DNA from: Chloroflexota bacterium
GTDB lineage: Bacteria > Chloroflexota > Anaerolineae > UBA2200
Length of the DNA stretch: 64,000 nt
Direction: 5' to 3'
Assembly (NCBI GenBank): GCA_014360755.1
Contig: JACIWX010000006.1
Span: 27,748 to 91,747, forward strand
A program made the translations under genes and the position numbers. The notes beneath the pieces are model-generated. The model ran no database searches and had not been told where the DNA came from. It saw only the letters and a program-made list of their open reading frames with translations. Shown here one piece after another: positions 7,503-50,707 of this stretch; position 1 is the stretch's first letter; each line of letters starts with the position of its first letter.

Positions 7503-8440
7503 TGGATCTCTCTGTTATTATCGTCAGTTGGAACGTCAAAGGATTGCTGGCTGAGTGCCTGGCTTCTGTCTATGACGCTTTGGGCAGGAGCCATTTTGCC
7601 TGCGAAATATTGGTTGTGGACAATGCTTCCTCCGATGGCAGCCCTGAGATGGTGCGCGAGCGTTTCCCGCAGGTTTCGCTCTTGGCGAATGCTGAGAACA
7701 GGGGTTTTGCCGCTGCCAATAACCAAGCCATGGCACTAGCACAAGGTCGCCTGGTGCTGTTATTGAACCCGGACACCGTGGTGCGCCGCGACGCTTTGGA
7801 CATACTAGTGCGCTTTATGGATGAGACCCCCACAGCTGGCATGGCTGGTCCGCGCTTGGTCTACCCCGATGGGCGTTTCCAACACGCGGCATTTCGTTTC
7901 CCTACGCTGGCGCAGGCTTTCTTTGATTTCTTCCCCGTGCATTACCGGCTGTTGGAATCACCATTGAACGGGCGCTACTCGCCTTCCCTGTATGCTGCCG
8001 GGCGTCCCTTTGTTATAGACCATCCTTTAGGGGCGTGCATGATGGTCCGGCGGCAGGCGATTGACGAGGTAGGGGGCATGGACGAGGGCTTTTTCATGTA
8101 CTGCGAAGAAATAGACTGGGCAATGCGCCTGAAACGCGCTGGATGGGGAATTTACTGTGTGCCAGCGGCGGAGGTGGTGCACTATGCTGGGCAGAGCACA
8201 CAGCAATTCCGCGAGGAAATGTTCGTTGCCCTGTGGCGCAGCCGCTTTCGCCTCTATGCCAAGCACTACGGACGGTTCGATAACTGGATGTTGCGTCGCG
8301 TGGTGCGTTTGGGTTTGTGGCAGGAGAGGCGGAGGGCGCAACGTCAGGCTGAGACAGGCGTGATTTCACAGGAGGATCTGGCTCGCCGCATGGCAGCCTA
8401 TCAGCGTGTAGAGGAGATGACGGATAGCAGTGTGTGGTAG
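7502..8440 (+). CDS. Family 2 glycosyltransferase.
   Basis: MDLSVIIVSWNVKGLLAECL...VVDNASSDGS, a GT-A fold signature. The ATG overlaps the upstream stop as TGATG. Confidence 0.85.
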   Translation: MDLSVIIVSWNVKGLLAECLASVYDALGRSHFACEILVVDNASSDGSPEMVRERFPQVSLLANAENRGFAAANNQAMALAQGRLVLLLNPDTVVRRDALDILVRFMDETPTAGMAGPRLVYPDGRFQHAAFRFPTLAQAFFDFFPVHYRLLESPLNGRYSPSLYAAGRPFVIDHPLGACMMVRRQAIDEVGGMDEGFFMYCEEIDWAMRLKRAGWGIYCVPAAEVVHYAGQSTQQFREEMFVALWRSRFRLYAKHYGRFDNWMLRRVVRLGLWQERRRAQRQAETGVISQEDLARRMAAYQRVEEMTDSSVW

Positions 8441-9290
8441 CCAGTTACCATCGGGTAGAGCAGGAGATAGCCAATGCGCGGCTGGAAGCCCATCTGGTAC
8501 GGCGCAAGGTGAGCCGGAGTTAGCCGTAGTGGTGTTGACGAAGAACGAAGAGGGCAATATCCGCGATTGCTTGCAAAGCGTCTGCTGGGCTGATCGGCTG
8601 TATGTGCTGGACTCACTGAGCAGCGATGGCACGGTGGAACTGGCGAGCCAGGCTGGTGCGGAAGTGCGTCAACGTCCCTTTGTTAACTATGCGGATCAGC
8701 GTAATGCGGCTTTGGAGATGTTCCCTGCACAGTGGATTTTCTTTGTGGATGCCGATGAGCGCGGCACGCCGGAATTGGGCGAGGAAATACGGCGCGTCAT
8801 TCGGCAGGAGGATGCGGTGGGATGGTGGGTGCCACGACGGAACTATATTTGGGGACGTTGGATACGCCACGCAGGATGGTATCCGGATTACCAGTTACGT
8901 TTGCTGAAGCGGGGCTTTGCGCGCTATGACCCAATACGCGAGGTACACGAGATCGTCATCTTGAATGGCGCGGAAGGCTACTTACAGAATCCGCTGATCC
9001 ATTACAACTATGCCACCGTGCGCCAGTTTCTGCAGAAGCAGGATTTCTATGCCACTTATGAAGCCGACGTTTTCATCAAGCAAGGCATACGGCCTCGCCC
9101 GCACCATTTTGTCTCGCAGCCGCTGCGCGAGTTCCTCCGCCGCTATTGGACGCTGCAAGGCTACAAGGACGGGGGGCATGGGTTGTTGCTGAGCCTGCTC
9201 ATGGCTTACTACACCTTCATAGCCTACTGGCGGGCATGTAAGATGATTGATAGCCCATGCCACTGTGTAGGAACTGTTAGCAAGGGCTAG
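8430..9290 (+). CDS. Family 2 glycosyltransferase (LPS-core/WaaE-like).
   Basis: LAVVVLTKNEEGNIRDCLQSV...YVLDSLSSDGT. The true start is probably a GTG near 8527, after a GGAG motif. The track start at 8430 overlaps the previous stop. Confidence 0.8.
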   Translation: MCGSQLPSGRAGDSQCAAGSPSGTAQGEPELAVVVLTKNEEGNIRDCLQSVCWADRLYVLDSLSSDGTVELASQAGAEVRQRPFVNYADQRNAALEMFPAQWIFFVDADERGTPELGEEIRRVIRQEDAVGWWVPRRNYIWGRWIRHAGWYPDYQLRLLKRGFARYDPIREVHEIVILNGAEGYLQNPLIHYNYATVRQFLQKQDFYATYEADVFIKQGIRPRPHHFVSQPLREFLRRYWTLQGYKDGGHGLLLSLLMAYYTFIAYWRACKMIDSPCHCVGTVSKG

Positions 9291-9520: not shown

Positions 9521-9549
9521 TTGTGCTTCCATCGCCTATATGCTATACT
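9521..9549 (+). promoter_or_regulatory. Putative sigma70-type promoter of the helicase-nuclease-recJ operon, nearly leaderless.
   Basis: TTGTGC (9521-9526), a 17-nt spacer, then TATACT (9544-9549). The ATG at 9561 lies about 5-8 nt from the predicted transcription start. Confidence 0.3.
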
Positions 9550-9560
9550 AATGCTTGATC

Positions 9561-11699
9561 ATGGCTGATATCGAATTAACCCCCGAACAGAAAAGTCTCG
9601 TTCTGATGCCTGTTGGTGAGCCACGCACGGTTTTCCTGGAGGGACCGGCTGGCTGCGGCAAGACGACGGTGGCAGTGCAACGGTTGCTCTACCTCCTGGA
9701 TGTGGGTGTGCGCGCCGATCACATTCTGGTATGGGTGCCGCAACGTTCACTAGGCTGGCCTTATGTTGAGGCACTCCGCCGTCCAACGATCCCTGCCGGA
9801 GCACGGGTGGATGTGCTCAGCGTGGATGGGCTTGCGCGGAGGGCGCTAGACCTTTTCTGGCCGGTGATCGCCGAACGGGCTGGTTTCAACCCCACGCAAG
9901 AACCCAGGTTCCTGACGCTGGAGACGGCACAGTACTATATGGATCAGGTCTTGGAGCCATTCATCCGGGAGGGGGCTTTCGGTGATGTGACGGTGTCGCG
10001 CAACCGTTTGCTGAGCCAGATTATTGATAACTTGAACAAGGCAGCCTTGGTTGGCTTTCCACACACAGAGATTGGGGCACGCTTGATCGCAGCCTGGAAT
10101 GGGCCCAGCAGCCGTGAGAGGGTGTACGAGGCGGTGCAGCGTGCGGCGAATGCCTTCCGTGAGTATTGTCTGCAGCACAACTTGCTGGATTTTTCGTTGC
10201 AAGTGGAGACGTTCATCCGTCATGTATGGCCGCAATCAGAATGCCGCGCTTATCTCCTGCGGCGCTACCGCCATTTGATTGCGGATAATTTGGAAGAGGA
10301 TATTCCTGTAGCCCATGATTTGCTGCGGGAGTGGCTGGAGCAAGCTGCCTCTGCTCTGTTGGTGTATGATCAGGATGGGGGTTTTCGGACTTATCTGGGT
10401 GCGGATCCCGAAGGGGCGCTGGCATTGGGAGAGCGGTGTGATCAGAGGGTGATCCTAGACAAGCCGTTTGTTCCCTCGCCAGCCGTGCAGGCGTTGGGCA
10501 ATGGCCTGGCGAAGCAAGCCACAGGGAAGCGCCCCCACCCAGCCGAACCTCTTCCCGATGCGACACAATTGGAAGAGGCGTTGCGCTTTGTGGAAGGGCA
10601 TTTCCATACCGCCATGCTGCACAATGTGGTGGAGGAGGTGCTGCATTTGGTGATGGATGAAGGCGTAGCGCCGGGCCAGATTGCGATATTGGCGCCCTTT
10701 GTAGATGATGCCCTACGCTTTACGCTCATGACGGAGTTCGAACGCCATGGCGTGCCGGTGCGTTCGCACCGTCCATCGCGCGCCTTGCGGGAAGAGCCGG
10801 CAGTGCGCTGCTTGCTGACACTGGCGCAATTGGCACATCCACAATGGGAGATGTGCCCACCGCGCAATGACGTCGCGCAGGCATTGGTGCAGGCAATCGC
10901 AGGTCTGGATTGGGTGCGTGCCAGTTACCTTACCGAAATTGTTTACACTACGAAAGAGCATCGTCCCCATTTGTATCCCTTTGGGCAGCTTCAACCAGAG
11001 GTGCAAGAGCGGATCACGTTCAGCCTAGGAACCCGCTACGGCGACTTGCTGCGCTGGATGGAAGCCTATATGGCAGCGCCGCCTTTGCCACTGGATCTGT
11101 TCTTTAGTAGGTTGTTTGATGAATTGCTGGCAAAGCCAGGCTACGGTTTTCATAATCATTACGATGCCGCGGCTGCCGCTGCCCACTTGATTGAGTCGGT
11201 GCGCAAATTCCGCTGGGCGCTGGATGTGGCGGATGTGGATGAATTGGGCAAGCGTTATATCCGCATGGTAGAAGGGGGAGTCGTAGCAGCGCAATACTTG
11301 CGCGGCTGGCGATCTGCAGAGCAGAATGCAGTATTCATTGCTCCTGCCTACACCTTTTTAGCCGAGAACCGCCCGGTTGATTACCAGTTTTGGCTCAATG
11401 CCAACAGCCTCTCCTGGGGGCGGCGCTTGTACCAGCCACTGACTCATCCCTTTGTGCTTACCCGGCATTGGCCGCCCGGACGCCGTTGGGACGAAGAGGA
11501 TGAGTTCCAGGCTGGGCAAACCATGCTGCGGCGTGTCGTGCTAGGGTTGCTGCGTCGTTGCCGCGTGCGGGTATATCTGGGGATCAGCGAGTTGAATCCC
11601 CGTGGCCGTGAGGAGCGAGGACCATTGTTGGATTGGGTGCAGCGGATGCTGCGCGAGGTTGCCCTCACCCCTAGCCCATCACCCGAGGATAGAGGGTAG
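9561..11699 (+). CDS. UvrD-like SF1 helicase paralogue with an intact Walker A but degenerate downstream helicase motifs (AddB/RexB-like inactive helicase).
   Basis: GPAGCGKTTVAVQRLLYLL resembles UvrD motif I. The later motifs are degraded: WVPQRS replaces the TFTN(K/R)AA motif, and LLDFSLQ replaces LLDFDDLL. No DExx or VGDxxQ motif was recognised. Confidence 0.8.
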   Translation: MADIELTPEQKSLVLMPVGEPRTVFLEGPAGCGKTTVAVQRLLYLLDVGVRADHILVWVPQRSLGWPYVEALRRPTIPAGARVDVLSVDGLARRALDLFWPVIAERAGFNPTQEPRFLTLETAQYYMDQVLEPFIREGAFGDVTVSRNRLLSQIIDNLNKAALVGFPHTEIGARLIAAWNGPSSRERVYEAVQRAANAFREYCLQHNLLDFSLQVETFIRHVWPQSECRAYLLRRYRHLIADNLEEDIPVAHDLLREWLEQAASALLVYDQDGGFRTYLGADPEGALALGERCDQRVILDKPFVPSPAVQALGNGLAKQATGKRPHPAEPLPDATQLEEALRFVEGHFHTAMLHNVVEEVLHLVMDEGVAPGQIAILAPFVDDALRFTLMTEFERHGVPVRSHRPSRALREEPAVRCLLTLAQLAHPQWEMCPPRNDVAQALVQAIAGLDWVRASYLTEIVYTTKEHRPHLYPFGQLQPEVQERITFSLGTRYGDLLRWMEAYMAAPPLPLDLFFSRLFDELLAKPGYGFHNHYDAAAAAAHLIESVRKFRWALDVADVDELGKRYIRMVEGGVVAAQYLRGWRSAEQNAVFIAPAYTFLAENRPVDYQFWLNANSLSWGRRLYQPLTHPFVLTRHWPPGRRWDEEDEFQAGQTMLRRVVLGLLRRCRVRVYLGISELNPRGREERGPLLDWVQRMLREVALTPSPSPEDRG

Positions 11700-11703
11700 G
11701 AAT

Positions 11704-14001
11704 ATGTTTCGACCACGACGGGGGCAGCAAGAGGTATTGGCTTACCGTGGGGGGCTGATGGGGGTGGCAGCAGTGCCTGGTAGCGGCAAGACGGAAGTGC
11801 TCTCCGCCCTGGCAGCAAAACTAGTGGCTACCAGCCTGGATGAAGGGCAGGAAGTGCTGATTGTTACCCTGGTTAATTCGGCGGTGGACAATTTCACCGC
11901 ACGCATCCGGAGATTTTTACGGGAGGAATACAAACTCCTGCCTGGTATGGGCTACCGTGTGCGCACGCTGCATGGCTTATCGCATGACATTGTGCGCGAG
12001 CGCCCAGGTCTGGTAGGATTAGCAGATGACTTTGCAATCGCGGATGAACGAGAAGCAAGGGGCATCCTCGAAGATGCGGTGTATTCCTGGTTGCGCACGC
12101 ATCCTGACTTGCTGGAAATGTATCTCAGCACGGAACTGGAAGAATGGCGCGTGCGCGTTGTTGCCAAAGACTGGTGGCCTGATGAGGCTTGCGAAGTGGC
12201 GAACGCCTTTATCCATCGTGCCAAAGACCGACAGTGGACGCCAGAGATGCTGCGGAGCTGGCTTTTGCTACGGGATGAACGTTTGCCTTTGGCGGAGTTT
12301 TGCATTGATGTCTATGCAGATTACCAGCGCAGTTTATCCTACCGCGGCAAAGTGGATTTCGATGATTTGGTGGCTTATGCGATTACGGCGCTGCGGTTGG
12401 ACAAGGATTATCTCGGGCGCTTGCAATATCGCTGGCCTTTCATTTTGGAAGATGAGGCGCAGGATTCGAGCGAGTTACAGCAGGACTTGTTGGCATTGCT
12501 GGCTGGGCCAAATGGGCGCTGGGTGAGGGTGGGCGATCCCAACCAAGCCGTGTACTACACTTTCACGACGGCTAACCCGCGCCTATTGCGCGAATTTTTG
12601 GAACGCCCTGAAGTGCAGACTGTAGAAATGTTGGAGTCAGGACGTTCAGCCCGCCCCATCATCGAGTTAGCCAATTATCTGTTGGATTGGACTGTGAACG
12701 AGCACCCGTTGGAAGAAGCACGGTTGGCTTTTCGACCGCAACATATCTTACCCACCGCTGAAGGCGATGCGCAGCCCAACCCGCCTGACGAAGAGTGTCG
12801 CATCTACTTTCATCCGGGGCGGCTGACACCGGATGGCGAAATACGCACAGTAGTCAAATCGCTCGCCAAGTGGGTGCCAGCGCACAGGGAGCAAACGGTT
12901 GCTGTGCTGGTGCCGGATAACGAGCGGGGTTTCAAGTTCGCTGAGGCACTGCGTCAAAAGGGCCTGGCTTGTGTGGAATTGCTCAATAGCACTGGGCCGA
13001 CCCGGGATACGGCAGGCATTTTGGAAGCGATTTTGATGCACTTGGCGGATCCAGACAACCCCAAACGGCTAGGACCGGCATTTCTGGCTTGGCATTGGCG
13101 CGAGCGGGTGGATAAGGAACGCTACCTGTATTTAACCCGGCTGTCGCGCTTGCTGGGGAAGTGTATGAAAGTAGAAGATTATCTATGGCCACGCCTGGGC
13201 GTGGATTGGCTGCGCGAGCAAGATTTTAGCGAGGATGATGAGGCATTTGCCCTCTTGGCTGAATTCCGCGAAAAGGCACAGCGCTGGCATAAGGCAGCAG
13301 GTTTGCCAATTGATCAATTGATACTCACTTTATCCCAAGATCTGTTCGATGAGCCGGCTGATTTAGCTCGTGCGTACCACTTTGCAGTAGTACTGCGCGA
13401 TTACAGCGAGGCTAACCCAGCGTGGCGTTTGGCTGATCTGGCGCAGGAATTGCATGTTATCGCGCGCAATGAGCGGCGTTTTATAGGCTTGTCTGCCGAG
13501 GACACGGGTTTTGACCCAGAACGCTACAAGGGACAGGTGGTGGTTGCGACCATGCATCGCGCCAAGGGGCTAGAGTGGGATCGCGTGCATCTCACAGCGG
13601 TAAATAACTATGATTTCCCTTCTGGGGAGGAGATTGACCGCTACAAGAGTGAACGCTGGTATGTACGCGGCGATTTGAACCTGGTGGCGGAAGCGTTGGG
13701 GCAATTGGAAGCATTGCGTCCTGGTGGAAAGCCGTATGTGGAGGGGGAGCCCTCTCGGAAAGCGCGCCTTGAGTACATCCGGGAACGATTGCGCCTTCTC
13801 TATGTGGGCATTACGCGGGCGAAACGAGAACTGATCGTAACGTGGAATACAGGCAAGAACGAAAGGGACCCTAAAACGCCGGCATTGCCTTTCACAGTTT
13901 TGCGCACCTATTGGGAAGGAACAGCCTCCAAAAAGTTCGCCGCATTGAGCCCACAGAAGGATGAACAGAAGGAGAAGGGAGGAGGAACGCATGGTCCCTG
14001 A
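11704..14001 (+). CDS. UvrD/REP-family ATP-dependent DNA helicase with no nuclease domain.
   Basis: Walker A AVPGSGKTEVL, motif II DEAQDSSELQ, motif III VGDPNQAVYYTF and motif VI ATMHRAKGLEWDRVHL. The ATG lies 2 nt after the upstream stop. Confidence 0.85.
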   Translation: MFRPRRGQQEVLAYRGGLMGVAAVPGSGKTEVLSALAAKLVATSLDEGQEVLIVTLVNSAVDNFTARIRRFLREEYKLLPGMGYRVRTLHGLSHDIVRERPGLVGLADDFAIADEREARGILEDAVYSWLRTHPDLLEMYLSTELEEWRVRVVAKDWWPDEACEVANAFIHRAKDRQWTPEMLRSWLLLRDERLPLAEFCIDVYADYQRSLSYRGKVDFDDLVAYAITALRLDKDYLGRLQYRWPFILEDEAQDSSELQQDLLALLAGPNGRWVRVGDPNQAVYYTFTTANPRLLREFLERPEVQTVEMLESGRSARPIIELANYLLDWTVNEHPLEEARLAFRPQHILPTAEGDAQPNPPDEECRIYFHPGRLTPDGEIRTVVKSLAKWVPAHREQTVAVLVPDNERGFKFAEALRQKGLACVELLNSTGPTRDTAGILEAILMHLADPDNPKRLGPAFLAWHWRERVDKERYLYLTRLSRLLGKCMKVEDYLWPRLGVDWLREQDFSEDDEAFALLAEFREKAQRWHKAAGLPIDQLILTLSQDLFDEPADLARAYHFAVVLRDYSEANPAWRLADLAQELHVIARNERRFIGLSAEDTGFDPERYKGQVVVATMHRAKGLEWDRVHLTAVNNYDFPSGEEIDRYKSERWYVRGDLNLVAEALGQLEALRPGGKPYVEGEPSRKARLEYIRERLRLLYVGITRAKRELIVTWNTGKNERDPKTPALPFTVLRTYWEGTASKKFAALSPQKDEQKEKGGGTHGP

Positions 14002-14860
14002 AGGCTTTGTCTTCAGCCAAAGCAGCCTGCAGGACTATATGGATTGTCCGCGGCGCTTCCAATTGCGCTATTTGGAGCAGTGTCTCTGGCCTGCGCCGGA
14101 GACGGCGGATGCACTGGATTTTGAACGGTTCATGCAGCGAGGCCAGGCGTTTCACCGCTTGTTGCGCCAGCTTTATAGCGGTGTGCCGCGGGAAGCCTTG
14201 GAGGCAGTGGCAATGGCTGATCCTGACTTGGCACGTTGGTGGCTGAATTATCGTCATGCCTCGCCACAGGATTTGCCAACTGCAGTACAGGAAGCGGAGG
14301 TGGCTTTGTCTGTGGCTATTGCGCTGCCTGAGCAGGGAGAGCGCGCTGAGGGCGGAGATGGACGCTTTCGCCTGGAGGCGCGCTATGATTTGCTGGCAGG
14401 GGAGCCAGGCGGACGTTGGGTCATTGTGGACTGGAAGACAGGGCAGCACCGCAACAGTCGCGCCTGGCTGCAGCAGCGGTTGCAGACACGTATTTACCCT
14501 TATGTGCTGGTACAGGCTGGCGCTATGTTCAATCAGGGTGAGCCGATTGCTCCACAGCAGGTGGAAATGCTGTATTGGTTTGCCGAGTTCCCTGCCCAGC
14601 CGGAGCGTTTTTCCTATAGTGAAGAGCAATTTGCTGCAGATGCCGCTTTTTTGGCTGATTTGGTGTACGAGATCGCAAGGCGGCCTGAGGAGGTATTCCC
14701 CAAAACAGAGCAGCGCCGCTTGTGTCGCTATTGCGTATATCGCTCTCTGTGCTGGACAGACGTGGAAGCTGGCTTGCTCGCTGAGGCGGGGGAGGTGGAA
14801 GCAGTTGAAGCCGCTTTGGAAGACCTCGACTTGGAAAGCATCGCCCCGATTCCGTTCTAG
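13991..14860 (+). CDS. PD-(D/E)XK nuclease of the Cas4 / AddB-nuclease type with an Fe-S cysteine staple.
   Basis: N-terminal Cys in DYMDCPRRFQLRY, IVDWKTG (DxK), QxxxY-like IYPYVL, and C-terminal CRYCVYRSLC (Cx2Cx5C). It overlaps the upstream helicase by 11 nt and has a GGGAGGAGG SD. Confidence 0.85.
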   Translation: MVPEGFVFSQSSLQDYMDCPRRFQLRYLEQCLWPAPETADALDFERFMQRGQAFHRLLRQLYSGVPREALEAVAMADPDLARWWLNYRHASPQDLPTAVQEAEVALSVAIALPEQGERAEGGDGRFRLEARYDLLAGEPGGRWVIVDWKTGQHRNSRAWLQQRLQTRIYPYVLVQAGAMFNQGEPIAPQQVEMLYWFAEFPAQPERFSYSEEQFAADAAFLADLVYEIARRPEEVFPKTEQRRLCRYCVYRSLCWTDVEAGLLAEAGEVEAVEAALEDLDLESIAPIPF

Positions 14861-14866
14861 AGAGGG

Positions 14867-17164
14867 TTGCTGATGAAATGGGTAGAGCCGCCGCCGGTTG
14901 AGGTGCCGGCAGAATTACAAGCAGCCGTGGGTGGGCATCCACTGGTGGCGAAAGCGTTGGTGGAGCGCGGCTTGAGCACGCCGCATGCTGCGCTGGCTTT
15001 TCTAGATCCAGCCTATTATCGCCCGTCCTCGCCACTAGAATTGCCTGATATGGCAGCAGCCGTGGAGCGATTACAGAGCGCCATTGCCCGAGGGGAACGC
15101 ATTCTCGTGTGGGGTGACTTTGATGTGGATGGTTTGACAGCCACGGCTTTGCTAGTGGAAGCACTGCGGGCGCTGGGGGCGCAGGTAGACTGGTACATTC
15201 CTGACCGTCGCACGGAATCGCATGGTGTTCATTGGCGCTCGTTGCAGCCTTTTCTGGGGCGGGGAGTACGCGTGCTCTTGACCTGTGATACAGGGATATC
15301 CGCGCACGAGGTGGTGGCGTTGGCGCAACACGCGGGATTGGATGTGCTCATTACGGATCACCACGCGCTACCCCCTACACTGCCGCAGGCACAGGCCATT
15401 GTAAACCCCCGGCGCTTGCCAAGCGAGCATCCCCTATACCATCTGTCCGGTGTGGGCGTAGCTTACAAACTCGCAGAAGCGCTGGGCGTAGGTGAAAAAG
15501 GGTTGGATTTGGTTGTGCTGGGGCTGGTGGCGGATGTGGTGCCGCTGCAGGGAGAGGTGCGCTATCTTGTACAACGCGGGCTACAGATGCTACGCCAAGT
15601 GAGACGTGTGGGGCTGCAAGCGCTATTAGAGGTCGCCGAAATCGGCCCCGATGCATTGGATGAGGATCAGATTAGCTATGCCTTAGCGCCGCGTTTGAAT
15701 GCCCTTGGCCGAATGACGGACGCTTCTGTGGGGGTGGAACTTTTCCTGACGGAAGACCTAGCCCGGGCGCGTGTGATCGCTGCGGAGATGGAGGCATGGA
15801 ATGTACGCCGTCAATTTCTCAGCCAGCAAGTGTTTGTTGCCGCGCAGGAACAGATTGAGAAGGACCGTTCTTTGTTGTCCCAGCCGGTGCTGGTGCTGTC
15901 CCATCCCCAGTGGCCCACTGGGGTGCTGGGTATTGCTGCCGGACGCCTAGCCGAGCGCTACAACCGGCCGGTGGTACTCCTCTCTGCGCCACCTGGTGGG
16001 ATGGCGCGTGCTTCCGCGCGCTCTGTGCCTGGCGTGGATCTCTATGCCGCATTGGCTGCACATAGCCGGCTGCTGGCTAGTTTTGGTGGCCACCCTATGG
16101 CGGCTGGCTTTTCTATTGCGCTTGATCGTATCCCCGAATTGAGACGTTTGCTGGTAGAGACGGTGGCAGCGCAGATTGGTGTGTTGCCACCAGAACGCGA
16201 GTTACCCATTGCAACCTACCTTTCCCTGCCCGATCTTACTTTGGAGTTGTTGGATGAGGTAGCGCGTCTAGCGCCGTTTGGGCCAGGCAATCCACCGTTG
16301 TATTTGGCATCACGGCGGTTGCGTGTGACCGCCGAGCGCACTATTGGACGCATAGGCGAACATCGCCGGTTGGAGGTACAGGATGAAGAGGGACATGCAT
16401 TGCCAGCAGTGTGGTGGCAAAGCGCTGATTTGCCTGTGCCCGAGGGTCTTTTTGACCTGGCTTATGTGCTGCGTGCAGGGAATTTTGCCAGAGAGCGTAC
16501 TCTCTACCTGGAATGGATTGACGCGCATATAGTGGAAAAGCCAGTGGTGGAGAGGATTGTGCCCACCATAGCCATTGCTGTGGCAGACTATCGTACGGTC
16601 AAGGAGCCATTACCGATTTTACAGGCGTTGTGGGAAGAAGGGACGATGGCGCTTTGGGCAGAAGCGGTGGCAGTTCCTGGCTTTCCGGCGCATGGAAGGA
16701 GCGATCTGCAGCCCAACTCTATCCTGGTGGTATGGACGATTCCACCGGGTCCAAGGGTGTGGAAGCAAGTTCTGCATCGTGTGCAGCCCTCACAGGTATT
16801 TTTGTTCGGCGTGGATCCAGGATTGGATACCGTGGATGCCTTCTTACGCCGCCTGACGGGGCTGGTCAAGCATGCCCTCAGTGCTTACAATGGTAAATTG
16901 AACTGGGAGGCGCTGGCGACTGCCATGGCTCATTGCGAGGAGACGGTGCAAGCGGGCGTGCGCTGGTTGATGGCTCATGGATTGGTGTCTCCGGTGACAC
17001 AACAAGGGGATATCCTCATTGTGGAGGGCGGAGGGCACACTGATGAGGCGGCTGAGCGTCGGGTGCGGCGCGAACTGGAAGAGTTGCTGCACGAGACAGC
17101 GGCGTACCGCGCCTATTTTCGCGAGGCAGATGCAAGGAGGCTGGTGGCATGGGATATGTTGTAG
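14867..17164 (+). CDS. recJ: Single-stranded-DNA-specific 5'-3' exonuclease RecJ.
   Basis: DHH motifs (ILVWGDFDVDGLTATALL; LITDHH), a DHHA1 region and an OB-fold C-terminal extension. The start lies 6 nt after the nuclease gene stop. Confidence 0.9.
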   Translation: MLMKWVEPPPVEVPAELQAAVGGHPLVAKALVERGLSTPHAALAFLDPAYYRPSSPLELPDMAAAVERLQSAIARGERILVWGDFDVDGLTATALLVEALRALGAQVDWYIPDRRTESHGVHWRSLQPFLGRGVRVLLTCDTGISAHEVVALAQHAGLDVLITDHHALPPTLPQAQAIVNPRRLPSEHPLYHLSGVGVAYKLAEALGVGEKGLDLVVLGLVADVVPLQGEVRYLVQRGLQMLRQVRRVGLQALLEVAEIGPDALDEDQISYALAPRLNALGRMTDASVGVELFLTEDLARARVIAAEMEAWNVRRQFLSQQVFVAAQEQIEKDRSLLSQPVLVLSHPQWPTGVLGIAAGRLAERYNRPVVLLSAPPGGMARASARSVPGVDLYAALAAHSRLLASFGGHPMAAGFSIALDRIPELRRLLVETVAAQIGVLPPERELPIATYLSLPDLTLELLDEVARLAPFGPGNPPLYLASRRLRVTAERTIGRIGEHRRLEVQDEEGHALPAVWWQSADLPVPEGLFDLAYVLRAGNFARERTLYLEWIDAHIVEKPVVERIVPTIAIAVADYRTVKEPLPILQALWEEGTMALWAEAVAVPGFPAHGRSDLQPNSILVVWTIPPGPRVWKQVLHRVQPSQVFLFGVDPGLDTVDAFLRRLTGLVKHALSAYNGKLNWEALATAMAHCEETVQAGVRWLMAHGLVSPVTQQGDILIVEGGGHTDEAAERRVRRELEELLHETAAYRAYFREADARRLVAWDML

Positions 17165-18108
17165 GAGTGGACTTGGGCGGGACGCAGATCCGAGCCTGTC
17201 TAGCGGATATGAAAGGGAGTATTCTTTGCGAGGCTCGCCAGCCGACGCTGGCAAAAGAGGGGCTACAACCAGTATTGCAGCGTATGAAGGAAACGATCGC
17301 CCAAGTACTGCATGGCATCTCTGGAATAGAGGTCCTGGGCATTGGGGTAGGCTCGCCGGGGCCGCTTGATCCACGGACTGGCGTGGTGATTGCACCGCCT
17401 AACCTGCCGGGATGGCGCAATGTGCCATTGCGCGAGATCTTGTCGCAGGAATTTGGATTGCCGGTATATGTGAATAATGATGCCAATGTAGCAGCTCTGG
17501 CGGAGCAACGCTTCGGCGCAGGGCGCGGTTGTTCGGATATCGTGTATTTGACGATTAGCACGGGTATTGGGGGCGGTGTTATCAGCAGTGGGCAGTTGTT
17601 GCTGGGTGCGCATGGCTTAGCTGGGGAGCCGGGCCACACCACTGTCGAACCTGCGGGGCCACGCTGTAATTGTGGCAACGTAGGATGCCTGGAAATGATG
17701 GCGGCTGGCCCAGCTATTGCCCGCCATGCGCTGGATCTGATGCAGCAAGGCCAGCATTCGACCTTGTGGGCAGTGGTGCAGGGTGGGATGGAACTCACAG
17801 CAGAGATGGTGGGCAGGGCGGCACAGGAGGGGGATGATGTGGCATTGCAGGCCGTTGCGCGCGCAGCCCACTACCTGGGGATTGGTGTGTTGAACCTCAT
17901 TCATATTTTCGACCCAGATCGGGTGATTTTGGGCGGTGGGGTGAGTAAACTAGGTTCCCTACTTTTTGACCCGGTGCGCGCCTGGGTGCGAGAACACGCC
18001 ATGACCGATTTGCAGCGTGAGACGCCTGTTGTGCCAGCAGCATTGGGGGATCAGGTCGGATTGCTGGGGGCTGTAGCATGGGCAATGGACAGGATTTCGT
18101 CCTTGTAG
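17149..18108 (+). CDS. ROK-family glucokinase.
   Basis: VGVDLGGTQIRACLAD at the N-terminus and the CNCGNVGCLE zinc motif. It overlaps the recJ 3' end by 16 nt. Confidence 0.85.
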   Translation: MGYVVGVDLGGTQIRACLADMKGSILCEARQPTLAKEGLQPVLQRMKETIAQVLHGISGIEVLGIGVGSPGPLDPRTGVVIAPPNLPGWRNVPLREILSQEFGLPVYVNNDANVAALAEQRFGAGRGCSDIVYLTISTGIGGGVISSGQLLLGAHGLAGEPGHTTVEPAGPRCNCGNVGCLEMMAAGPAIARHALDLMQQGQHSTLWAVVQGGMELTAEMVGRAAQEGDDVALQAVARAAHYLGIGVLNLIHIFDPDRVILGGGVSKLGSLLFDPVRAWVREHAMTDLQRETPVVPAALGDQVGLLGAVAWAMDRISSL

Positions 18109-18128
18109 TATAATCTCGTCGAAACTGC

Positions 18129-19019
18129 ATGAAAGGGGGAGGCATGGGCCTGAGTGACATTTTTAACATTGTATGGATTCTGTTCCTGCTGTCTACGTTG
18201 ATGCCAGCGTTGACCCGGCGCGCTATCGAGGCACGGCGGCGCATGGTCATTGATGCCATTGAACGTAAGCGTGGTTCCCGCCTGATTACGCTCATCCACC
18301 GGCAAGAGACGATGAGCCTGCTGGGCATTCCCATTAGTCGCTACATTGACATTGAAGACTCAGAGCAGGTATTGCGTGCCATCCGCTTGACGGCTGATGA
18401 TGTGCCGATAGACATTGTGCTGCACACGCCTGGAGGGCTGGTGCTAGCGGCAGAGCAGATCGCCTGTGCGCTCAGCCGGCATAAAGCGAAGGTTACTGTG
18501 TTTGTGCCACACTATGCCATGTCTGGTGGCACATTGATTGCCCTCGCTGCGGATGAGATTGTGATGGACCCCAATGGCGTGCTAGGCCCAGTGGACCCTC
18601 AATTGCAAATGCCGCAGGGCGGGGGCTATGTCCCGGCGGTCTCTGTGCTGGCTGCGCTCGAAGTGGATAATCCCAACCGCGATGACCAGACCCTTATCAT
18701 GGCTGATATGGCACGCAAAGCAATCCAGCAGGTGCACAATACAGTCTATACCTTGTTGCGCAACAACGGTATGGAGGAAGAAAAGGCGCAAGAGATCGCA
18801 CGGAAACTCAGCGCTGGGTGTTGGACGCACGACTATCCCATTTCCGCGGATGAGGCGCGTGAACTGGGATTGCCTGTTTCCGAGGACATGCCTAAGGAAA
18901 TCTATGCCTTAATGGACTTGTATCCGCAGGCAGGGCAAAGGCGTCCTTCCGTGGAGTTTATTCCGACACCCTATCGCCCTTCGCCAACCCGACCCGGACA
19001 GGGTGAGCCAGGCCGCTAA
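18129..19019 (+). CDS. SDH-family Clp-fold serine protease (S49-like), membrane-anchored.
   Basis: N-terminal TM helix, then ...HTPGGLVLAAEQIA...YAMSGGTLIALAADEIVMDPNGVLGPVDPQ, typical of the serine dehydrogenase proteinase family. Confidence 0.75.
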   Translation: MKGGGMGLSDIFNIVWILFLLSTLMPALTRRAIEARRRMVIDAIERKRGSRLITLIHRQETMSLLGIPISRYIDIEDSEQVLRAIRLTADDVPIDIVLHTPGGLVLAAEQIACALSRHKAKVTVFVPHYAMSGGTLIALAADEIVMDPNGVLGPVDPQLQMPQGGGYVPAVSVLAALEVDNPNRDDQTLIMADMARKAIQQVHNTVYTLLRNNGMEEEKAQEIARKLSAGCWTHDYPISADEARELGLPVSEDMPKEIYALMDLYPQAGQRRPSVEFIPTPYRPSPTRPGQGEPGR

Positions 19020-21950: not shown

Positions 21951-24044
21951 GTGAGGAGCATGGTTAAGAGGAATACATCGAAGAAGAACCTACAAGAAAT
22001 CATGCAGGAAGAAGGTCTATGCAAGGATGACCTTCTCAACTATCTGCGGCAAATGTTAGAGATTCGCTATTTCGAGGAAACTGTGTATGAACTCTTGGGT
22101 AAAAACCTGATCAAAGGGGCTTCGCATCTCTATGCCGGCGAGGAAGCAGTTGCCGTAGGCGCGATTTCCGCCCTGCGCGATGATGACTTGATTACCAGCA
22201 CACATCGTGGACATGGGCATTGTCATGCGCGAGGAGATAGCCTCGCCAAGACACCACAGGAGAAGCAAGAGCACCTGAACAAAATGATGGCGGAATTGTG
22301 CGGGCGTGCCACGGGGTATTGCAAGGGGCGCGGTGGTTCCATGCACATTGCAGATGTCGAGCGGGGCAATCTGGGCGCCACCGGCATTGTAGGTGGTAAT
22401 ATCCCTGTTGCCACAGGCGCAGCTCTGGCGGTGAAGATGCAAAATCAGGATCGGGTGGTGCTTTGTTTCTTCGGCGATGGCGCCTCGAACACGGGCAATT
22501 TCCACGAATCGCTGAACCTGGCTTCTGTTTGGAATTTGCCCGTAGTGTACATCGTGGAGAATAACCTGTATGGCATGTCCGTGCCCTTCGCCAAAGCCTC
22601 CAAGCTACCGGATGTAGCAGCGCGGGCTTGTGCTTATGGCATCCCGGGCGAAGTTGTAGACGGGATGGATGTGCTGGCAGTTCGCGCAGCGGTCAGGAAA
22701 GCGGTTGAACGTGCTCGGCGAGGCGAGGGTCCATCGTTGATTGAGTGCAAAACCTACCGCTGGTTTGGCCATTCGCGTTCAGATCCTTGTGTCTACCGTA
22801 CGCGTGAAGAGGAAGAACAATGGAAAAAGTGCGATCCCATCGTAGTGCTTGAGGAGCGGATGAAAGCAGAGAGCATTGCTACGGAGGAAGAGATCCTGGA
22901 CGTGGAGAGGCGGGCAGCCACTGCCATCAAGACTGCTACAGACTTTGCCCTGAACTCGCCGTTACCGCATCCATCTGAACTGTACCAGGATGTGTATGCT
23001 CCCAGCAAAACGACAGCAGCCGATATCGAAGCGGAGCGACAGTTGCGCCAAAGGGTGCGCAGCGATCCTAGTATGCGCCAGATACCGTACTGGCAGGCGA
23101 TTAACGAGGCTTTGCGCGAAGAGATGGACCGTGATCCACGTGTCTTTATCATGGGTGAGGATGTGGGTATCTATGGTGGGGCGTACGGAGTAACGCGTGG
23201 CCTGATCGAGGATTATGGTCCAGAACGTGTGCGGGATACGCCCATTTCTGAGGCGATTATTGGAGGAGCAGCGGTAGGTGCGGCGATGGCTGGCATGCGG
23301 CCGGTCGCAGAGATCATGTATGTTGATTTTACTCCGCTGGCGATGGATCAGATTGCCAACCAGGGAGCCAAGAACCGCTATATGTTTGGGGGCAAGACGA
23401 TTGTGCCGATGGTCATACGAACGGAAGGTGGGACAGGACGTTCCATTGCTGCCCACCATTCGCAGAGCTTGGAAGCGTTGTGGCTGCACTTTCCGGGCAT
23501 TTACGTCGTGATGCCGGCAACGCCTTATGATGCCAAAGGCTTGCTCAAGGCAGCCATCCGTGATGACAATCCGGTGATGTTCATTGAACATAAGATGCTG
23601 TATAAAGTGCAGGGGCCAGTTCCGGAGGGGGACTATCTCATTCCCTTGGGTGTCGCCGATGTGGTCCGTGAGGGAAGCGATGTAACGGTTGTGGCTTATT
23701 CGCGCATGCGTTATCGGGCTCTAGAGGCTGCCGATATACTCGCCAAAGAGGGCATTAGCGTTGAAGTGATTGATCCGCGTACACTGAAGCCGTTGGATTT
23801 GGAGACCATTGTTAACTCGGTGAAGAAAACGGGGCGTTTGGTGGGGGTAACTGAAGCCTACAAGACAGGGAGCTTCATCAGCGAATTGTTCACTCTGGTG
23901 AACGAGGTAGCTTTTGATTACCTGGATGCACCTATGGTGCGCGTGGCTGGTGCGGATGTCCCTATTCCGATGAGCGAGCCGCTGGAGGCAGCGGCTATCC
24001 CCAGCACAGAGCAAATTGTCGCTGCAATACGCAGCATATTGTGA
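21951..24044 (+). CDS. 2-oxo acid (pyruvate/acetoin-type) dehydrogenase E1 component with fused alpha and beta subunits, TPP-dependent.
   Basis: The alpha-subunit TPP motif (GDGASNTG..FHESLNLA..NNLYGMSVP) is followed by a beta-subunit transketolase-like domain in a single 697-aa ORF. Confidence 0.9.
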   Translation: MRSMVKRNTSKKNLQEIMQEEGLCKDDLLNYLRQMLEIRYFEETVYELLGKNLIKGASHLYAGEEAVAVGAISALRDDDLITSTHRGHGHCHARGDSLAKTPQEKQEHLNKMMAELCGRATGYCKGRGGSMHIADVERGNLGATGIVGGNIPVATGAALAVKMQNQDRVVLCFFGDGASNTGNFHESLNLASVWNLPVVYIVENNLYGMSVPFAKASKLPDVAARACAYGIPGEVVDGMDVLAVRAAVRKAVERARRGEGPSLIECKTYRWFGHSRSDPCVYRTREEEEQWKKCDPIVVLEERMKAESIATEEEILDVERRAATAIKTATDFALNSPLPHPSELYQDVYAPSKTTAADIEAERQLRQRVRSDPSMRQIPYWQAINEALREEMDRDPRVFIMGEDVGIYGGAYGVTRGLIEDYGPERVRDTPISEAIIGGAAVGAAMAGMRPVAEIMYVDFTPLAMDQIANQGAKNRYMFGGKTIVPMVIRTEGGTGRSIAAHHSQSLEALWLHFPGIYVVMPATPYDAKGLLKAAIRDDNPVMFIEHKMLYKVQGPVPEGDYLIPLGVADVVREGSDVTVVAYSRMRYRALEAADILAKEGISVEVIDPRTLKPLDLETIVNSVKKTGRLVGVTEAYKTGSFISELFTLVNEVAFDYLDAPMVRVAGADVPIPMSEPLEAAAIPSTEQIVAAIRSIL

Positions 24045-24054
24045 AAGGAGAGAC

Positions 24055-25287
24055 ATGGCAGTCGAAGTCATCTTGCCCGTTTTGGGCGAAACCATGGATG
24101 AGGGTACAATTATCAAGTGGTTTGTGGATGTAGGCCAGCCCGTCCAAAAGGGAGAGCCTCTCTATCAAATTGAAACCGATAAAGCCATATTGGATGTAGA
24201 TGCACCGGCGAGCGGAGTGTTGCGCAAAATCTTTTATCCCGCGGGGAGCAAGATCCCTGTGCTGACTGTGGTGGGGCTGATTGCTGATCCCAATGAGGAT
24301 GTCAGCGTCTACGAGCAGGGTGGCTTAGAGCCTAGTAAAACAATATCAGAAACGGTAGCGGCTGAACGGAGGCCCATGGCAGAAGGTCCTCGTAAGGGAT
24401 TGATCCCCCCGCGTGTTTTTGCTTCTCCACGAGCACGAAAATTGGCAGCAGAACACGGCATAGACCTCACGCGTTTGAAGGGCACTGGGCCTGGAGGGCG
24501 CATTGTGGAACAGGATGTGCGCGCCGCTATCGCAGCCATGGAGGCAGAGATAAAGGAACCCGCGTTGGCGCCAGCAGCAGTGGAGGCAGTGCCATCGCCA
24601 AGTGAAAGTAAGCCGTTAGCCGGGGTACGGCGCATCATTGCTGAGCGCATGAGCACTAGTGCACATACCACCGCGCCTGTGACTTTGACTACTGAGGTGG
24701 ACGCAACGAATCTGGTACAACTGCGCACTTTGTTGAAGGAGCAATTAGAACCCACCCTAGGCTTTGCTATCTCGTATACAGACATCCTTGTGGCGATTGT
24801 TGCGCGGGCTTTGCGCGAATATCCGTACATGAATGTACGCTTGGTCCAAGACGAAATCCAACAAGTGGCGCAGGTTCACATTGGGGTGGCAGTGGATACC
24901 GAGAGAGGCTTGTTAGTACCTGTGATCCGACATGCAGATCAGAAAGGGATTACAGAGATTGCGCGAACTTTGCGCGATTTGGTAGCACGGGCGCGGTCTG
25001 GGAAGAGCTTGCCAGATGACCTGAGTGGAGGCACGTTCACCATTACCAACCTGGGGATGTATGATGTTGATGCGTTCACACCGATTATCAACTTGCCAGA
25101 ATGTGCTATCCTGGGGGTAGGGCGTTTGCGTGAAGTGCCTGCGGTTTACCAGGGGCAGGTCTGTGTGCGCCAGATGATGGTGCTGAGCCTAACATTCGAT
25201 CATCGTTTGGTGGATGGTGCACCGGCAGCGCGTTTTCTGCAGCGGATAAAACAACTGGTAGAACAACCTTATCTATTATTGGCTTGA
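24055..25287 (+). CDS. Dihydrolipoamide acyltransferase E2 component.
   Basis: Lipoyl domain IETDKAILDV, a peripheral subunit-binding domain and the catalytic DHRLVDGA motif. The SD is GAAAGGAG. Confidence 0.9.
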   Translation: MAVEVILPVLGETMDEGTIIKWFVDVGQPVQKGEPLYQIETDKAILDVDAPASGVLRKIFYPAGSKIPVLTVVGLIADPNEDVSVYEQGGLEPSKTISETVAAERRPMAEGPRKGLIPPRVFASPRARKLAAEHGIDLTRLKGTGPGGRIVEQDVRAAIAAMEAEIKEPALAPAAVEAVPSPSESKPLAGVRRIIAERMSTSAHTTAPVTLTTEVDATNLVQLRTLLKEQLEPTLGFAISYTDILVAIVARALREYPYMNVRLVQDEIQQVAQVHIGVAVDTERGLLVPVIRHADQKGITEIARTLRDLVARARSGKSLPDDLSGGTFTITNLGMYDVDAFTPIINLPECAILGVGRLREVPAVYQGQVCVRQMMVLSLTFDHRLVDGAPAARFLQRIKQLVEQPYLLLA

Positions 25288-25300
25288 CAGAGGAGGGAAC

Positions 25301-26689
25301 ATGACGATTCGTTGTGACATTGCGATTGTTGGAGCTGGTCCAGGTGGATATGTAGCTGCCTTACGGGCAGCACAACTGGGAGCCAAAGTGGTGCTTGTGG
25401 AAAAGGACAAGTTGGGAGGAGTTTGCCTGAACTGGGGGTGCATCCCGACCAAGACTTTGCTGCGCACGGCAGAGGTCCTCCGTTTGACACGCGAAGCTGC
25501 TGAGTACGGGGTAATGGTGGATGGTGTCAGGTTGGATTGGGCGGCAGCGCAGAAGAGGAAAGAGGGGGTTGTCCGGCGTCTGACCGGTGGAGTCAAATTC
25601 CTTTTGGAAAGGGCTGGCGTGCAACTGCTGTTTGGAACGGCGCGTTTTGTCTCGCCAACCGCTTTGGAGGTCGTCGGAGCGAATGGCCAGGAACGGGTGG
25701 AGGCAAGGGACTATGTGATTGCTACAGGTTCACGCCCCGCTTCTCTGCCTATTCCAGGGCTCGAGGGTCCAGGTGTGTTGACTAGCGATGAGGCTTTGGC
25801 TCTGGAGGCACTACCGGAAAGCCTGCTGGTCATAGGCGCAGGGCCGATTGGGGTGGAATTCGCGACATTGTTCCGTGCTTGTGGCGTTCAGGTGACGCTG
25901 GTAGAGCTGTTGCCGCGGGTGCTACCTACACTGGACGAAGATCTGGGTGGAGAAGTAGAGCGCGCATTGAAAAAGGCAAAGGTAGCGGTATATACAGGAA
26001 GCCAAGTCTCCAAAGTGGAGAGGAGCAATGGTAAATATACCGTTACCATTCAGCAAGCGGATCAGCAGAGTGCGGTTGAGGTGGATAAGATACTCGTCGC
26101 CGTGGGACGGCGGCCGAACGTGGAAGGGCTGGGGTTGGATGTGCTTGGGGTACAGGTGGAGAAATCCGGCATTAAGGTGGATGAATTTATGCGCACCAAT
26201 GTCCCCCACATCTACGCAGTTGGTGATGTGACAGGTGGCATCTTGTTGGCGCATGTCGCCATGCATGAAGGGGTTGTGGCTGTGGAGAACGCCATGGGCT
26301 TGCAACGCGCGATGAATTATGCTGCTGTGCCCAGTTGTGTGTTTAGTTCTCCGGAAGTAGCCAGCGTGGGATTGAGTGAAGAACAGGCGCGACAACAGGG
26401 CTATGACCTTCACATAGGGAAGTTTCCCTTCCGGGGGAATGGGAAAGCGCTGGCGCAGGGCGAGTATGAAGGGTTGGTCAAGATTGTGGCGGAGAGCAAG
26501 TATGGTCAGATCCTCGGTGTGCACATCGTTGGTCCTCATGCCAGCGACCTTATTCAGGAAGGCACTCTCGCATTGACTTTGGAAGCAACATTGGATGAAA
26601 TCGAAGTTACCATCCATCCACATCCCACCTTGAGCGAAGCAGTGGCTGAGGCTGCTCTGGCAGCGAAAGGACGTGCTTTGCATAGCTAG
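25301..26689 (+). CDS. lpdA: Dihydrolipoyl dehydrogenase E3.
   Basis: GAGPGGY FAD-binding motif, the redox disulfide [13 protein letters not shown] and the C-terminal HPHPTLSE motif. Confidence 0.9.
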
Positions 26690-26705
26690 GAGGTCTGGTT
26701 CGGCG

Positions 26706-50279: not shown

Positions 50280-50691
50280 GGGGATGACAGGTCTCGACGG
50301 GGAGGGCTGACTCGAGACTGCAAGCTGAGGTGCCTCCACCTCGTAAAACAGGGGCAAAATACAAGTGCCAACACAGCACGAATGCCGGCGTATGCTTACG
50401 CCATGGCTGCATAAAGCGGACCTAGCGTAAGCAGACGCTTTGGCCACTACGAGTGGCCACGTCCATCCCGCTCTCGCTTCCGGTGGAGTGGGGTCGGGCG
50501 TCATAGGAACCGGAGTGCGGTCGCCCCCATGCTGATAAGGGCGGCCTAAGCCCCTCCAACGAGGGGATCAGCTGGCTCCATGGCAACTCCGTCGGTTGAG
50601 GTGCATGGAGCGAGAACAAAAAGCCGACTAAGCTTGTAGGATGTCTCCAGTCGAACTCTTCGGACGCGGGTTCGATTCCCGCCATCTCCAC
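50280..50691 (+). ncRNA. ssrA: tmRNA (transfer-messenger RNA).
   Basis: 5' GGGGATGACAGGTCTCGACGGGG, a typical tmRNA 5' end. 3' GGACGCGGGTTCGATTCCCGCCATCTCCA, a T-arm plus a 7-bp acceptor stem complementary to the 5' end. Internal tag ORF GCC AAC ACA ... GCT GCA TAA encodes ANTARMPAYAYAMAA. The gene lies immediately downstream of smpB. Confidence 0.85.
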
Positions 50692-50707
50692 TGTTTGGTG
50701 TGGAGCG

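Follow-up and report, generated by a model that had tools for sequence, protein, structure and literature searches.

A conserved gene cluster in Anaerolineae and some Clostridia joins a degenerate UvrD-fold protein, a UvrD-like helicase, a stand-alone iron-sulfur nuclease and RecJ, and most likely serves the trimming of broken DNA ends

The subject of this analysis is a cluster of four DNA-metabolism genes on a 64,000-nucleotide stretch of contig JACIWX010000006.1 from a Chloroflexota bacterium of the class Anaerolineae (assembly GCA_014360755.1); "the window" refers to this whole stretch, and positions are counted from its first letter. Five open reading frames (ORFs), all on the + strand, fill 9.5-18.1 kb of the window. 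The first, gene A (9561-11699), encodes a 712-aa protein with the UvrD/Rep fold of superfamily 1 (SF1) helicases, and the second, gene B (11704-14001), a 765-aa UvrD-like SF1A helicase. These are followed by gene C (13991-14860), encoding a 289-aa stand-alone PD-(D/E)XK nuclease with an iron staple, by the gene for the 763-aa 5'-3' single-stranded DNA exonuclease RecJ (14873-17164), and by a gene for a ROK-family glucokinase (17149-18108; PF00480). An earlier note, made by reading the sequence alone, had singled out the first four as one operon, and the cluster proved to be real, with all genes on the + strand and essentially where they had been placed; only the beginning given for the module, position 9521, had to be given up, as it lies out of frame with the gene A ORF. 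The four genes form a conserved but uncharacterised module on the chromosomes of Anaerolineae and some Clostridia, and its task is most likely the trimming of broken DNA ends in repair.

Start codons of all five genes were picked by homology in combination with ribosome-binding sites, by which ATG 9561 is the most likely start of gene A, with TTG 9555 as the alternative. Genes A and B are then separated by 4 nt (A stop 11699, B ATG 11704), B and C overlap by 11 nt (C ATG 13991, B stop 14001), C and RecJ are 12 nt apart, or 6 nt if RecJ starts at TTG 14867, and RecJ and ROK overlap by 16 nt (ROK ATG 17149, RecJ stop 17164). The tight packing that had been described for the four genes stands, but the figure attached to it, overlaps or gaps of at most 6 nt, fails at the C/RecJ junction unless the TTG start is the one in use. 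A scan for promoters and terminators returned sites no more frequently than in shuffled controls, and none upstream of gene A; an extended -10 element read there by hand (TGcTATACT, 9541-9549) is only a suggestion. The strongest sigma-70-like match of the region (11/12) lies at 18086-18114 (+), just 5' of the gene for an SDH-type ClpP-like protease (start 18129), and suggests that the operon ends after the ROK gene; the scan that gave this match did not find more sites overall than expected by chance.

For gene A, the Pfam match is restricted to the Walker-A end of PF00580 (27 bits), and NCBIfam gave no meaningful match and none to an addB model. Its AlphaFold2 (AF2) model, with a predicted local distance difference test score (pLDDT) of 75, matches UvrD, PcrA and Rep over the full length, followed by AddB, AdnB and RecB. 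Rep and PcrA are the closest folds, AdnA is found alongside AdnB among the matches, and structure comparison of the model shows the four-subdomain UvrD fold. In an alignment of the family (n=76), Q10, the Walker A motif GxxGxGKT and D242, the aspartate of motif II, are conserved. Motif II as a whole reads D242-N243-x-E-E-D, with asparagine at 243 in 76/76 homologues and with E245, E246 and D247 essentially invariant. When the family profile was aligned to Escherichia coli UvrD across motifs II-IV, D242 fell on the Walker B aspartate and N243 on the glutamate of DEFQD, while A/G273 took the place of the motif III glutamine and V304 that of the motif IV arginine; at the expected place of motif VI, the family has an Arg-rich G-L-x-R-R-C-R segment. 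As these replacements are strongly conserved, the motifs have been swapped for another selected set and have not decayed, which points to a selected, non-hydrolysing function: judged by its residues, the motif set should bind nucleotide without hydrolysing it. The earlier note had called gene A an AddB-like inactive helicase with an intact Walker A and eroded motifs downstream. Its Walker A and its inactive, AddB-like pattern hold, and alignment confirms that the helicase motifs are not intact (N243 throughout, with the motif III glutamine and motif IV arginine replaced), but "eroded" does not describe such conserved replacements.

AddB has a UvrD-like four-subdomain fold that has lost its motifs save motif I and the Mg-coordinating aspartate of motif II, and it serves as an NTP-binding, Chi-scanning domain in which bound nucleotide stabilises Chi recognition (PMC3321194). 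Gene A shares with AddB the inactivated UvrD-like N-terminal region that keeps Walker A, as a pattern only: by sequence, the AddB chain matches gene A at E=0.28 and over Walker A only, and the likeness is one of pattern, not of ancestry. [quoted passage not shown] Profile alignment of A against B gives weak similarity in local mode (E ~5e-4; global hhalign gave a meaningless alignment), and we therefore make no claim of A and B being closest paralogues of one another.

An exhaustive profile search gathered 575 clusters (50% identity) of the gene A family at E<=1e-30. The full-length members listed are all ~700 aa long and are publicly named "hypothetical" or "UvrD-helicase domain-containing"; the gene A product of the window has an identical counterpart, a "hypothetical protein", in a Chloroflexi metagenome-assembled genome (MAG). 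No nuclease is fused to members of the family, the 150 best cluster representatives being ~700 aa or fragments. Three long matches were considered as informative fusions and rejected, as neither a nuclease nor a helicase B domain is present in them: in P0286 and P0264, the frame reads through into unrelated genes (a methyltransferase and an FtsX permease), and P0249 has ~1,000 additional residues without any Pfam family match. One homologue, P0429 of Desulfolucanica intricata (locus L084, 10001-11986), has no Walker A and reads ACA-AACPD instead of GxxGxGKT. It is solitary (B, C and RecJ are all missing within 10 kb) and may be a copy that is in decay or has been put to another use.

Gene B matches the UvrD domains of Pfam (PF00580, 141 bits; UvrD_C, 75 bits), and no PD-(D/E)XK nuclease domain was found in it by Pfam. 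Its SF1A motifs I-VI are complete (GSGKT, DEAQD, GDPNQ..., SGRS, HxAKGLE and VGITRA), and all their residues are invariant among 63 orthologues, in agreement with the earlier description of a motif-competent UvrD-like helicase that lacks a nuclease domain. Scores against the NCBIfam equivalogs are far below the cut-offs for rep (126.9 vs 951 bits), pcrA (120.1 vs 911) and uvrD (109.8 vs 1144), as well as for addA (TIGR02785, 58.9 vs 707.65; TIGR02784, 50.4 vs 860.75) and recB (TIGR00609, 63.8 vs 696), and its sequence matches in PDB rank as Rep, UvrD and PcrA, then AdnB and AddA. By these equivalog cut-offs, gene B is classed in a distinct UvrD-like subfamily and not as an orthologue of UvrD, PcrA or Rep. 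Motif III (window 12529-12579, residues 276-292) reads GDPNQA(I/V)YxTFTTAxP and is invariant, where the usual form is GDxxQSIYxFRGA; judged from the alignment, it is a signature of the subfamily. We propose gene B as the sole motor of the module.

Gene C matches PDDEXK_1 (PF12705) with 123.4 bits (cut-off 22). Its catalytic set (H55, D133, D147-W-K149 and Q165-x3-Y169) and its cysteines (C19...C245-x2-C248-x5-C254) are conserved in 51-53/53 sequences, so that the catalytic residues, the QxxxY motif and the four cysteines that define the Cas4-like, iron-staple PD-(D/E)XK nucleases are all in place; the catalytic D/E-K residues, which the earlier note had named as a possible gap, are thus not lacking (D133, D147 and K149). 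Its structure was predicted with the use of database homologues (AF2, pLDDT 85), and the model is closest to ACE1 (E 5e-9) and to the nuclease domain of AdnA (E 2e-8), with further matches to Cas4 SSO0001, Exo5, Dna2 and the nuclease domains of AddA and AddB. Among solved structures, the iron-sulfur nuclease domain of AdnA is also the best sequence match. Cysteines and fold matches thus agree on the free-standing Cas4/AddB-type nuclease with Cys...Cx2Cx5C that had been read from the letters. The protein is no CRISPR-associated Cas4 proper: it scores 28.1 bits against the cas4 equivalog TIGR00372, for which the cut-off is 65, and there are no cas genes among the neighbours examined. Of the enzymes that it resembles, the iron-sulfur nucleases of AdnA and AddB cleave the 5' strand of unwound DNA, and ACE1 threads and cuts single-stranded DNA, depending on a partner for the single strands, since nothing but single strands can be threaded by a free-standing enzyme of this fold (PMC12094033).

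The identity of the fourth gene as recJ, also proposed before, is secured by a score of 474 bits against the equivalog TIGR00644 (cut-off 396.9) and by the domains DHH (PF01368), DHHA1 (PF02272) and RecJ_OB (PF17768), all above cut-off; the protein matches the RecJ of PDB entry 8y30 at E 4e-85. Residues 545-763 (window 16505-17164) make up a C-terminal extension of ~215 aa that has no significant Pfam or PDB match and is collinear with RecJ of the Clostridia modules described below. This extension could be a docking domain for the A, B and C proteins. A weak winged-helix-like match was seen in it (E 0.08).

To follow the module across genomes, GTDB was scanned with one genome per species, and the taxonomy of gene A relatives was taken from source names. 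A relative of gene A is encoded by at least 586 GTDB species; the loci analysed are the best 80 of these, all of which belong to Anaerolineae-type Chloroflexota, including Anaerolinea thermolimosa IMO-1. Of the loci that extend far enough downstream to be counted, 64/68 have B after A, 48/57 have C downstream of A-B and 38/51 have RecJ downstream, with intergenic gaps that are typically short. A cluster that is kept across dozens of species in this way is far more than chance. The gene A family also reaches the Bacillota: the order A-B-C-RecJ is kept in Acetivibrio clariflavus and in a Clostridiales-labelled MAG at 26-32% identity, and all four proteins are collinear over their full length with those of the window. 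Junctions are tight there too (overlaps of 11 and 20 nt in L081; a 4-nt overlap and a 0-nt gap in L083), while the flanking genes are entirely different between the Anaerolineae and Clostridia lineages. Divergence is correlated among the four proteins (r 0.80-0.91), but a few close relatives drive this value, and we therefore give it little weight.

The question that had been raised alongside, whether this gene order recurs across genomes and sits in defence islands, is answered by these counts and by the neighbourhoods, which are not those of a defence island. The neighbours in the window are housekeeping genes (glycosyltransferases, glucokinase, SDH protease, 2-oxoacid dehydrogenase, UvrA and tmRNA), the module of A. 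clariflavus lies beside RNase PH and Ham1, and no member of the gene A family was found on IMG/VR viral contigs. An apparent B-C fusion in L068 and an over-long B in L004 were discarded, as the ORF listing shows a stop codon that separates the genes. Individual loci show insertions: in L068, an M14 carboxypeptidase gene (12251-13927) lies between A and B, and in A. thermolimosa (L079, 15218-18282, - strand) a GT2 glycosyltransferase gene and a gene for 710 aa without a Pfam match lie between C and RecJ.

The ROK gene does not share in this conservation. Its product (PF00480, 260 bits; TIGR00744, 249 bits, just below the cut-off of 260) is probably co-transcribed with RecJ in the window, but the gene follows RecJ in only 1 of the 80 related loci (L001, the closest relative) and is absent from the Clostridia modules. 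We regard it as a local passenger outside the conserved module. The 16-nt overlap, which had been called odd for a repair operon, is real; since ROK follows RecJ in the closest relative only, the overlap is a local accident and does not make ROK a part of the module.

In AddAB, the gene of the degenerate subunit comes ahead of that of the motor (addB-addA), just as A precedes B here. The module further shares with AddAB one active SF1A motor next to a UvrD-fold subunit that retains only Walker A and the motif II aspartate, an iron-staple PD-(D/E)XK nuclease with Cys...Cx2Cx5C, and the presumed task, resection of double-strand ends (PMC3321194). The differences lie in how these parts are joined. 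In AddAB, the iron-sulfur nuclease is C-terminal on AddB, whereas here it is encoded by gene C, separate and placed after the motor gene; the AddA motor is fused to a RecB-type nuclease, whereas motor B has none; and AddAB has two nuclease sites, one per strand, and a Chi-regulated switch, whereas A, B and C have one PD-(D/E)XK domain among them and RecJ is co-encoded. AdnAB likewise has a paralogous pair of UvrD-like subunits, and gene C resembles the iron-sulfur nuclease domain of AdnA, but nucleases are fused to both Adn subunits and to neither A nor B, and AdnA keeps its Walker B (PMC3321194), where in gene A the catalytic Glu is invariably replaced by Asn. As for RecBCD, the recB score of gene B is below the cut-off, and Pfam and NCBIfam gave no RecC or RecD matches for A, B or C. 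The module thus lacks the architecture that defines AddAB, AdnAB and RecBCD (fused nucleases, two nuclease sites or RecD, and model scores above cut-off), and we did not file it as a member of any of them; in its working it is most like AddAB, and each of its parts falls in a known superfamily. With the addA cut-offs missed, no addB match and the nuclease unfused, it is not a common, already-named variant of AddAB either, and the separate nuclease polypeptide by which the earlier note had set it apart from the fused AddAB and AdnAB is confirmed by the PD-(D/E)XK domain being found in C only.

Other systems share single parts. The RecFOR-pathway partners UvrD (or RecQ) and RecJ, as in Deinococcus radiodurans and E. 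coli, likewise combine a UvrD-family 3'-5' helicase with RecJ, which strips the 5' strand and leaves a 3' tail (PMC2806897), but their genes are unlinked and come with no degenerate helicase or iron-sulfur nuclease, whereas here all lie in one operon. Gene C has in common with ACE1 and the solo Cas4 nucleases the stand-alone iron-sulfur PD-(D/E)XK fold with its buried D-DxK site, and with Dna2 an iron-staple nuclease coupled to resection of the 5' strand (PMC3321194); it differs from them in that its partners are SF1A helicases instead of a prokaryotic Argonaute (pAgo) or an SF1B motor. Neither the related loci nor those ORFs of the window that were examined contain an Argonaute, and CRISPR genes are likewise missing nearby; the likeness to ACE1 is at the level of the fold. 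A GajA-like gene is absent around the module in the window and from the related loci with genes listed, although B matches models of GajB, the Gabija helicase component. The closest precedent is in a survey by Hudaiberdiev et al. (2017), a passage of which describes a predicted operon of an unfused UvrD-like gene and a Cas4-like gene (pfam12705), "mostly in Clostridiales", calls its context non-defence and suggests a role in repair (PMC5704561). Because the gene A family and the full four-gene cluster are found in Clostridia such as A. clariflavus, that operon is probably the same module, as far as the passage describes it. The passage names no degenerate second helicase and no link to Chloroflexi, and RecJ has 0 occurrences in the paper (PMC5704561). 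In our literature search for the four-gene module, this remark was the sole prior mention. The claim that the arrangement is not a described system is therefore to be narrowed: no description of the four genes was found and membership in AddAB fails, but the pairing of UvrD with a Cas4-like nuclease had been noted in 2017.

Taking these lines together, we hold with slightly better than even confidence that A, B and C together make up a helicase-nuclease of the chromosomal housekeeping kind, which processes DNA double-strand ends and is AddAB/AdnAB-like but differently built. The anatomy of the genes, the state of their motifs, the folds, the conservation of the operon and its non-defence context are observed. 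The overlapping genes, the operon structure and the conserved order suggest a physical complex of the three proteins, and we likewise infer strand polarity and a role in recombinational repair. Gene B would be the only active SF1A 3'-5' motor, moving along the 3'-ended strand and unwinding the duplex, with A as a paralogous UvrD-fold subunit that would bind nucleotide without hydrolysing it. C, the detached iron-sulfur nuclease, would cut the displaced 5'-ended strand, a task that we assign to it from its homology to the nuclease domains of AddB and AdnA, and RecJ would then degrade the 5'-ended strand in the 5'-3' direction. The product expected by default would be a single-stranded 3' tail for the loading of RecA, perhaps with no Chi-like signal required: as the module has no second nuclease of the AddA/AdnB type for the 3' strand, 3' tails would arise by default and control of the Chi type would be unnecessary. 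In other words, the module may merge the logic of AddAB with the UvrD-RecJ resection proposed for Deinococcus, in which, RecBC being absent, a UvrD-type helicase together with RecJ is an accepted model of end resection (PMC2806897).

Several observations weigh against this reading. Within 10 kb, 9/57 loci lack C and 13/51 lack RecJ, and in L007 the A-B pair is followed by unrelated genes; A-B alone is the near-obligate unit. Gene A is no nearer to AddB than to Rep or UvrD, in fold or in sequence, so that the analogy to AddB may be convergent. Most Clostridia have canonical AddAB or RecBCD, and if these coexist with the module, to call it "the" end-resection machine would be too simple. UvrD-like helicases and Cas4-like nucleases also serve in defence, and PADLOC has component matches for B and C. 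The looser attachment of C and RecJ, with A-B as the tightest pair, would suit a different role in DNA repair or replication, in which A and B form a heterodimer of the UvrD/PcrA type that acts on forks, gaps, RecA filaments or transcription-replication conflicts, and C and RecJ are loosely associated single-strand nucleases of the RecFOR type. By sequence, B stands closer to Rep, UvrD and PcrA than it does to AddA, AdnB and RecB, the nearest folds of A are Rep and PcrA, and genetic interactions of RecJ with PcrA and UvrD are known from other bacteria (a passage of PMC7385302; PMC2806897). Nevertheless, translational coupling of an active motor with a degenerate one and an iron-sulfur nuclease is the signature of an end-processing enzyme (PMC3321194), C overlaps the stop codon of B, the four-gene order is retained across two phyla, and B lies far under the equivalog cut-offs of PcrA, UvrD and Rep; we consider such a role rather unlikely, though deserving of attention.

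That the module degrades phage or plasmid DNA, in the manner of Gabija-like or UvrD-Cas4-type systems, was one half of the earlier proposal of "an end-resection or anti-phage" machine, and it draws on the PADLOC matches (B to GajB models with 149 bits, A weakly, and C to models of an Argonaute-associated Cas4-like nuclease and of Cas4) and on the link of UvrD-Cas4 fusions to restriction-modification and Dcm/Vsr defence contexts that a passage of the 2017 survey reports (PMC5704561). No partner gene of a known system (GajA, pAgo, Cas1/2 or restriction-modification) is found in the window or the related loci, however, and the same passage also deems the unfused UvrD and Cas4-like operon non-defence (PMC5704561). 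The family is present in at least 586 species representatives (with the best 80 loci all in Anaerolineae), its operon is conserved independently of position, and identity tracks relatedness. Being core to the lineage, with housekeeping neighbours and absence from viral contigs, the module is probably not a phage-defence system, and we rate the idea as improbable, while the other half of that proposal, end resection, is the reading that we favour on the conditional grounds given above. Finally, the four genes could be unrelated and merely packed side by side in a compact genome, as indeed the unrelated ROK glucokinase overlaps RecJ just as tightly in the window, and unrelated genes have been inserted in L068 (M14 peptidase and phosphoglycerate mutase) and L079 (the two reverse-strand genes). 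Yet the order A-B-C-RecJ is kept from Anaerolineae to Clostridia at ~30% identity between wholly different flanks, whereas the linkage of ROK is lost beyond the closest relative, and chance adjacency is accordingly the least probable of the explanations that we weighed, close to negligible.

Should an end-processing role for A, B, C and RecJ hold, a bolder version of it can be entertained tentatively, as a speculation rather than an expectation: the module might represent a fourth class, by architecture, of the bacterial machines that resect double-strand breaks, beside RecBCD, AddAB and AdnAB. It would consist of a heterotrimer of motor, ATP-binding pseudo-helicase and detachable iron-sulfur nuclease with a dedicated long-form RecJ, and would attack the 5' strand only and leave 3' tails without Chi control. 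Anaerolineae would rely on it as their main system for end processing, and part of the Clostridia would have it too. Its logic would be closer to eukaryotic helicase-Dna2 resection.

In textbooks, bacterial recombinational repair starts with RecBCD, AddAB, AdnAB, or RecQ/UvrD together with RecJ, and the module would be a widespread, uncharacterised hybrid of the RecBCD/AddAB/AdnAB and RecQ/UvrD-RecJ routes. Its separated parts make it possible to test the role of the ATP site in an "inactivated" helicase subunit, the sufficiency of one 5'-strand nuclease plus RecJ, and the dispensability of Chi-type regulation; cultured hosts of the gene A family include A. thermolimosa and A. clariflavus. The gene A family, with its 575 clusters, gains a functional hypothesis, and the arrangement bears on whether AddAB-type enzymes were assembled from modules or broken into them in the course of evolution.

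A few further features were observed around the module. Glycolytic genes recur beside it: next to the ROK gene of the window, L068 has a phosphoglycerate mutase gene (17182-18384) between C and RecJ, and in L084, the Desulfolucanica-like locus, a ROK gene lies two genes upstream of the gene A homologue (8063-9025) and PGI directly after it (12123-13478). This recurrence is probably a coincidence. Elsewhere in the window, UvrA is encoded at 54803-57679 (-), with its DNA-binding and interaction domains; this further repair gene lies on the other strand than the module, at a distance of 37 kb. A 2-oxoacid dehydrogenase operon (21951-28058, +) comprises a fused E1 alpha/beta (697 aa), E2 and E3, after which comes a GidA/TrmFO-like gene, and a full-length tmRNA lies at 50280-50693 (+), matching Rfam RF00023 with 161.7 bits over model positions 1-374.

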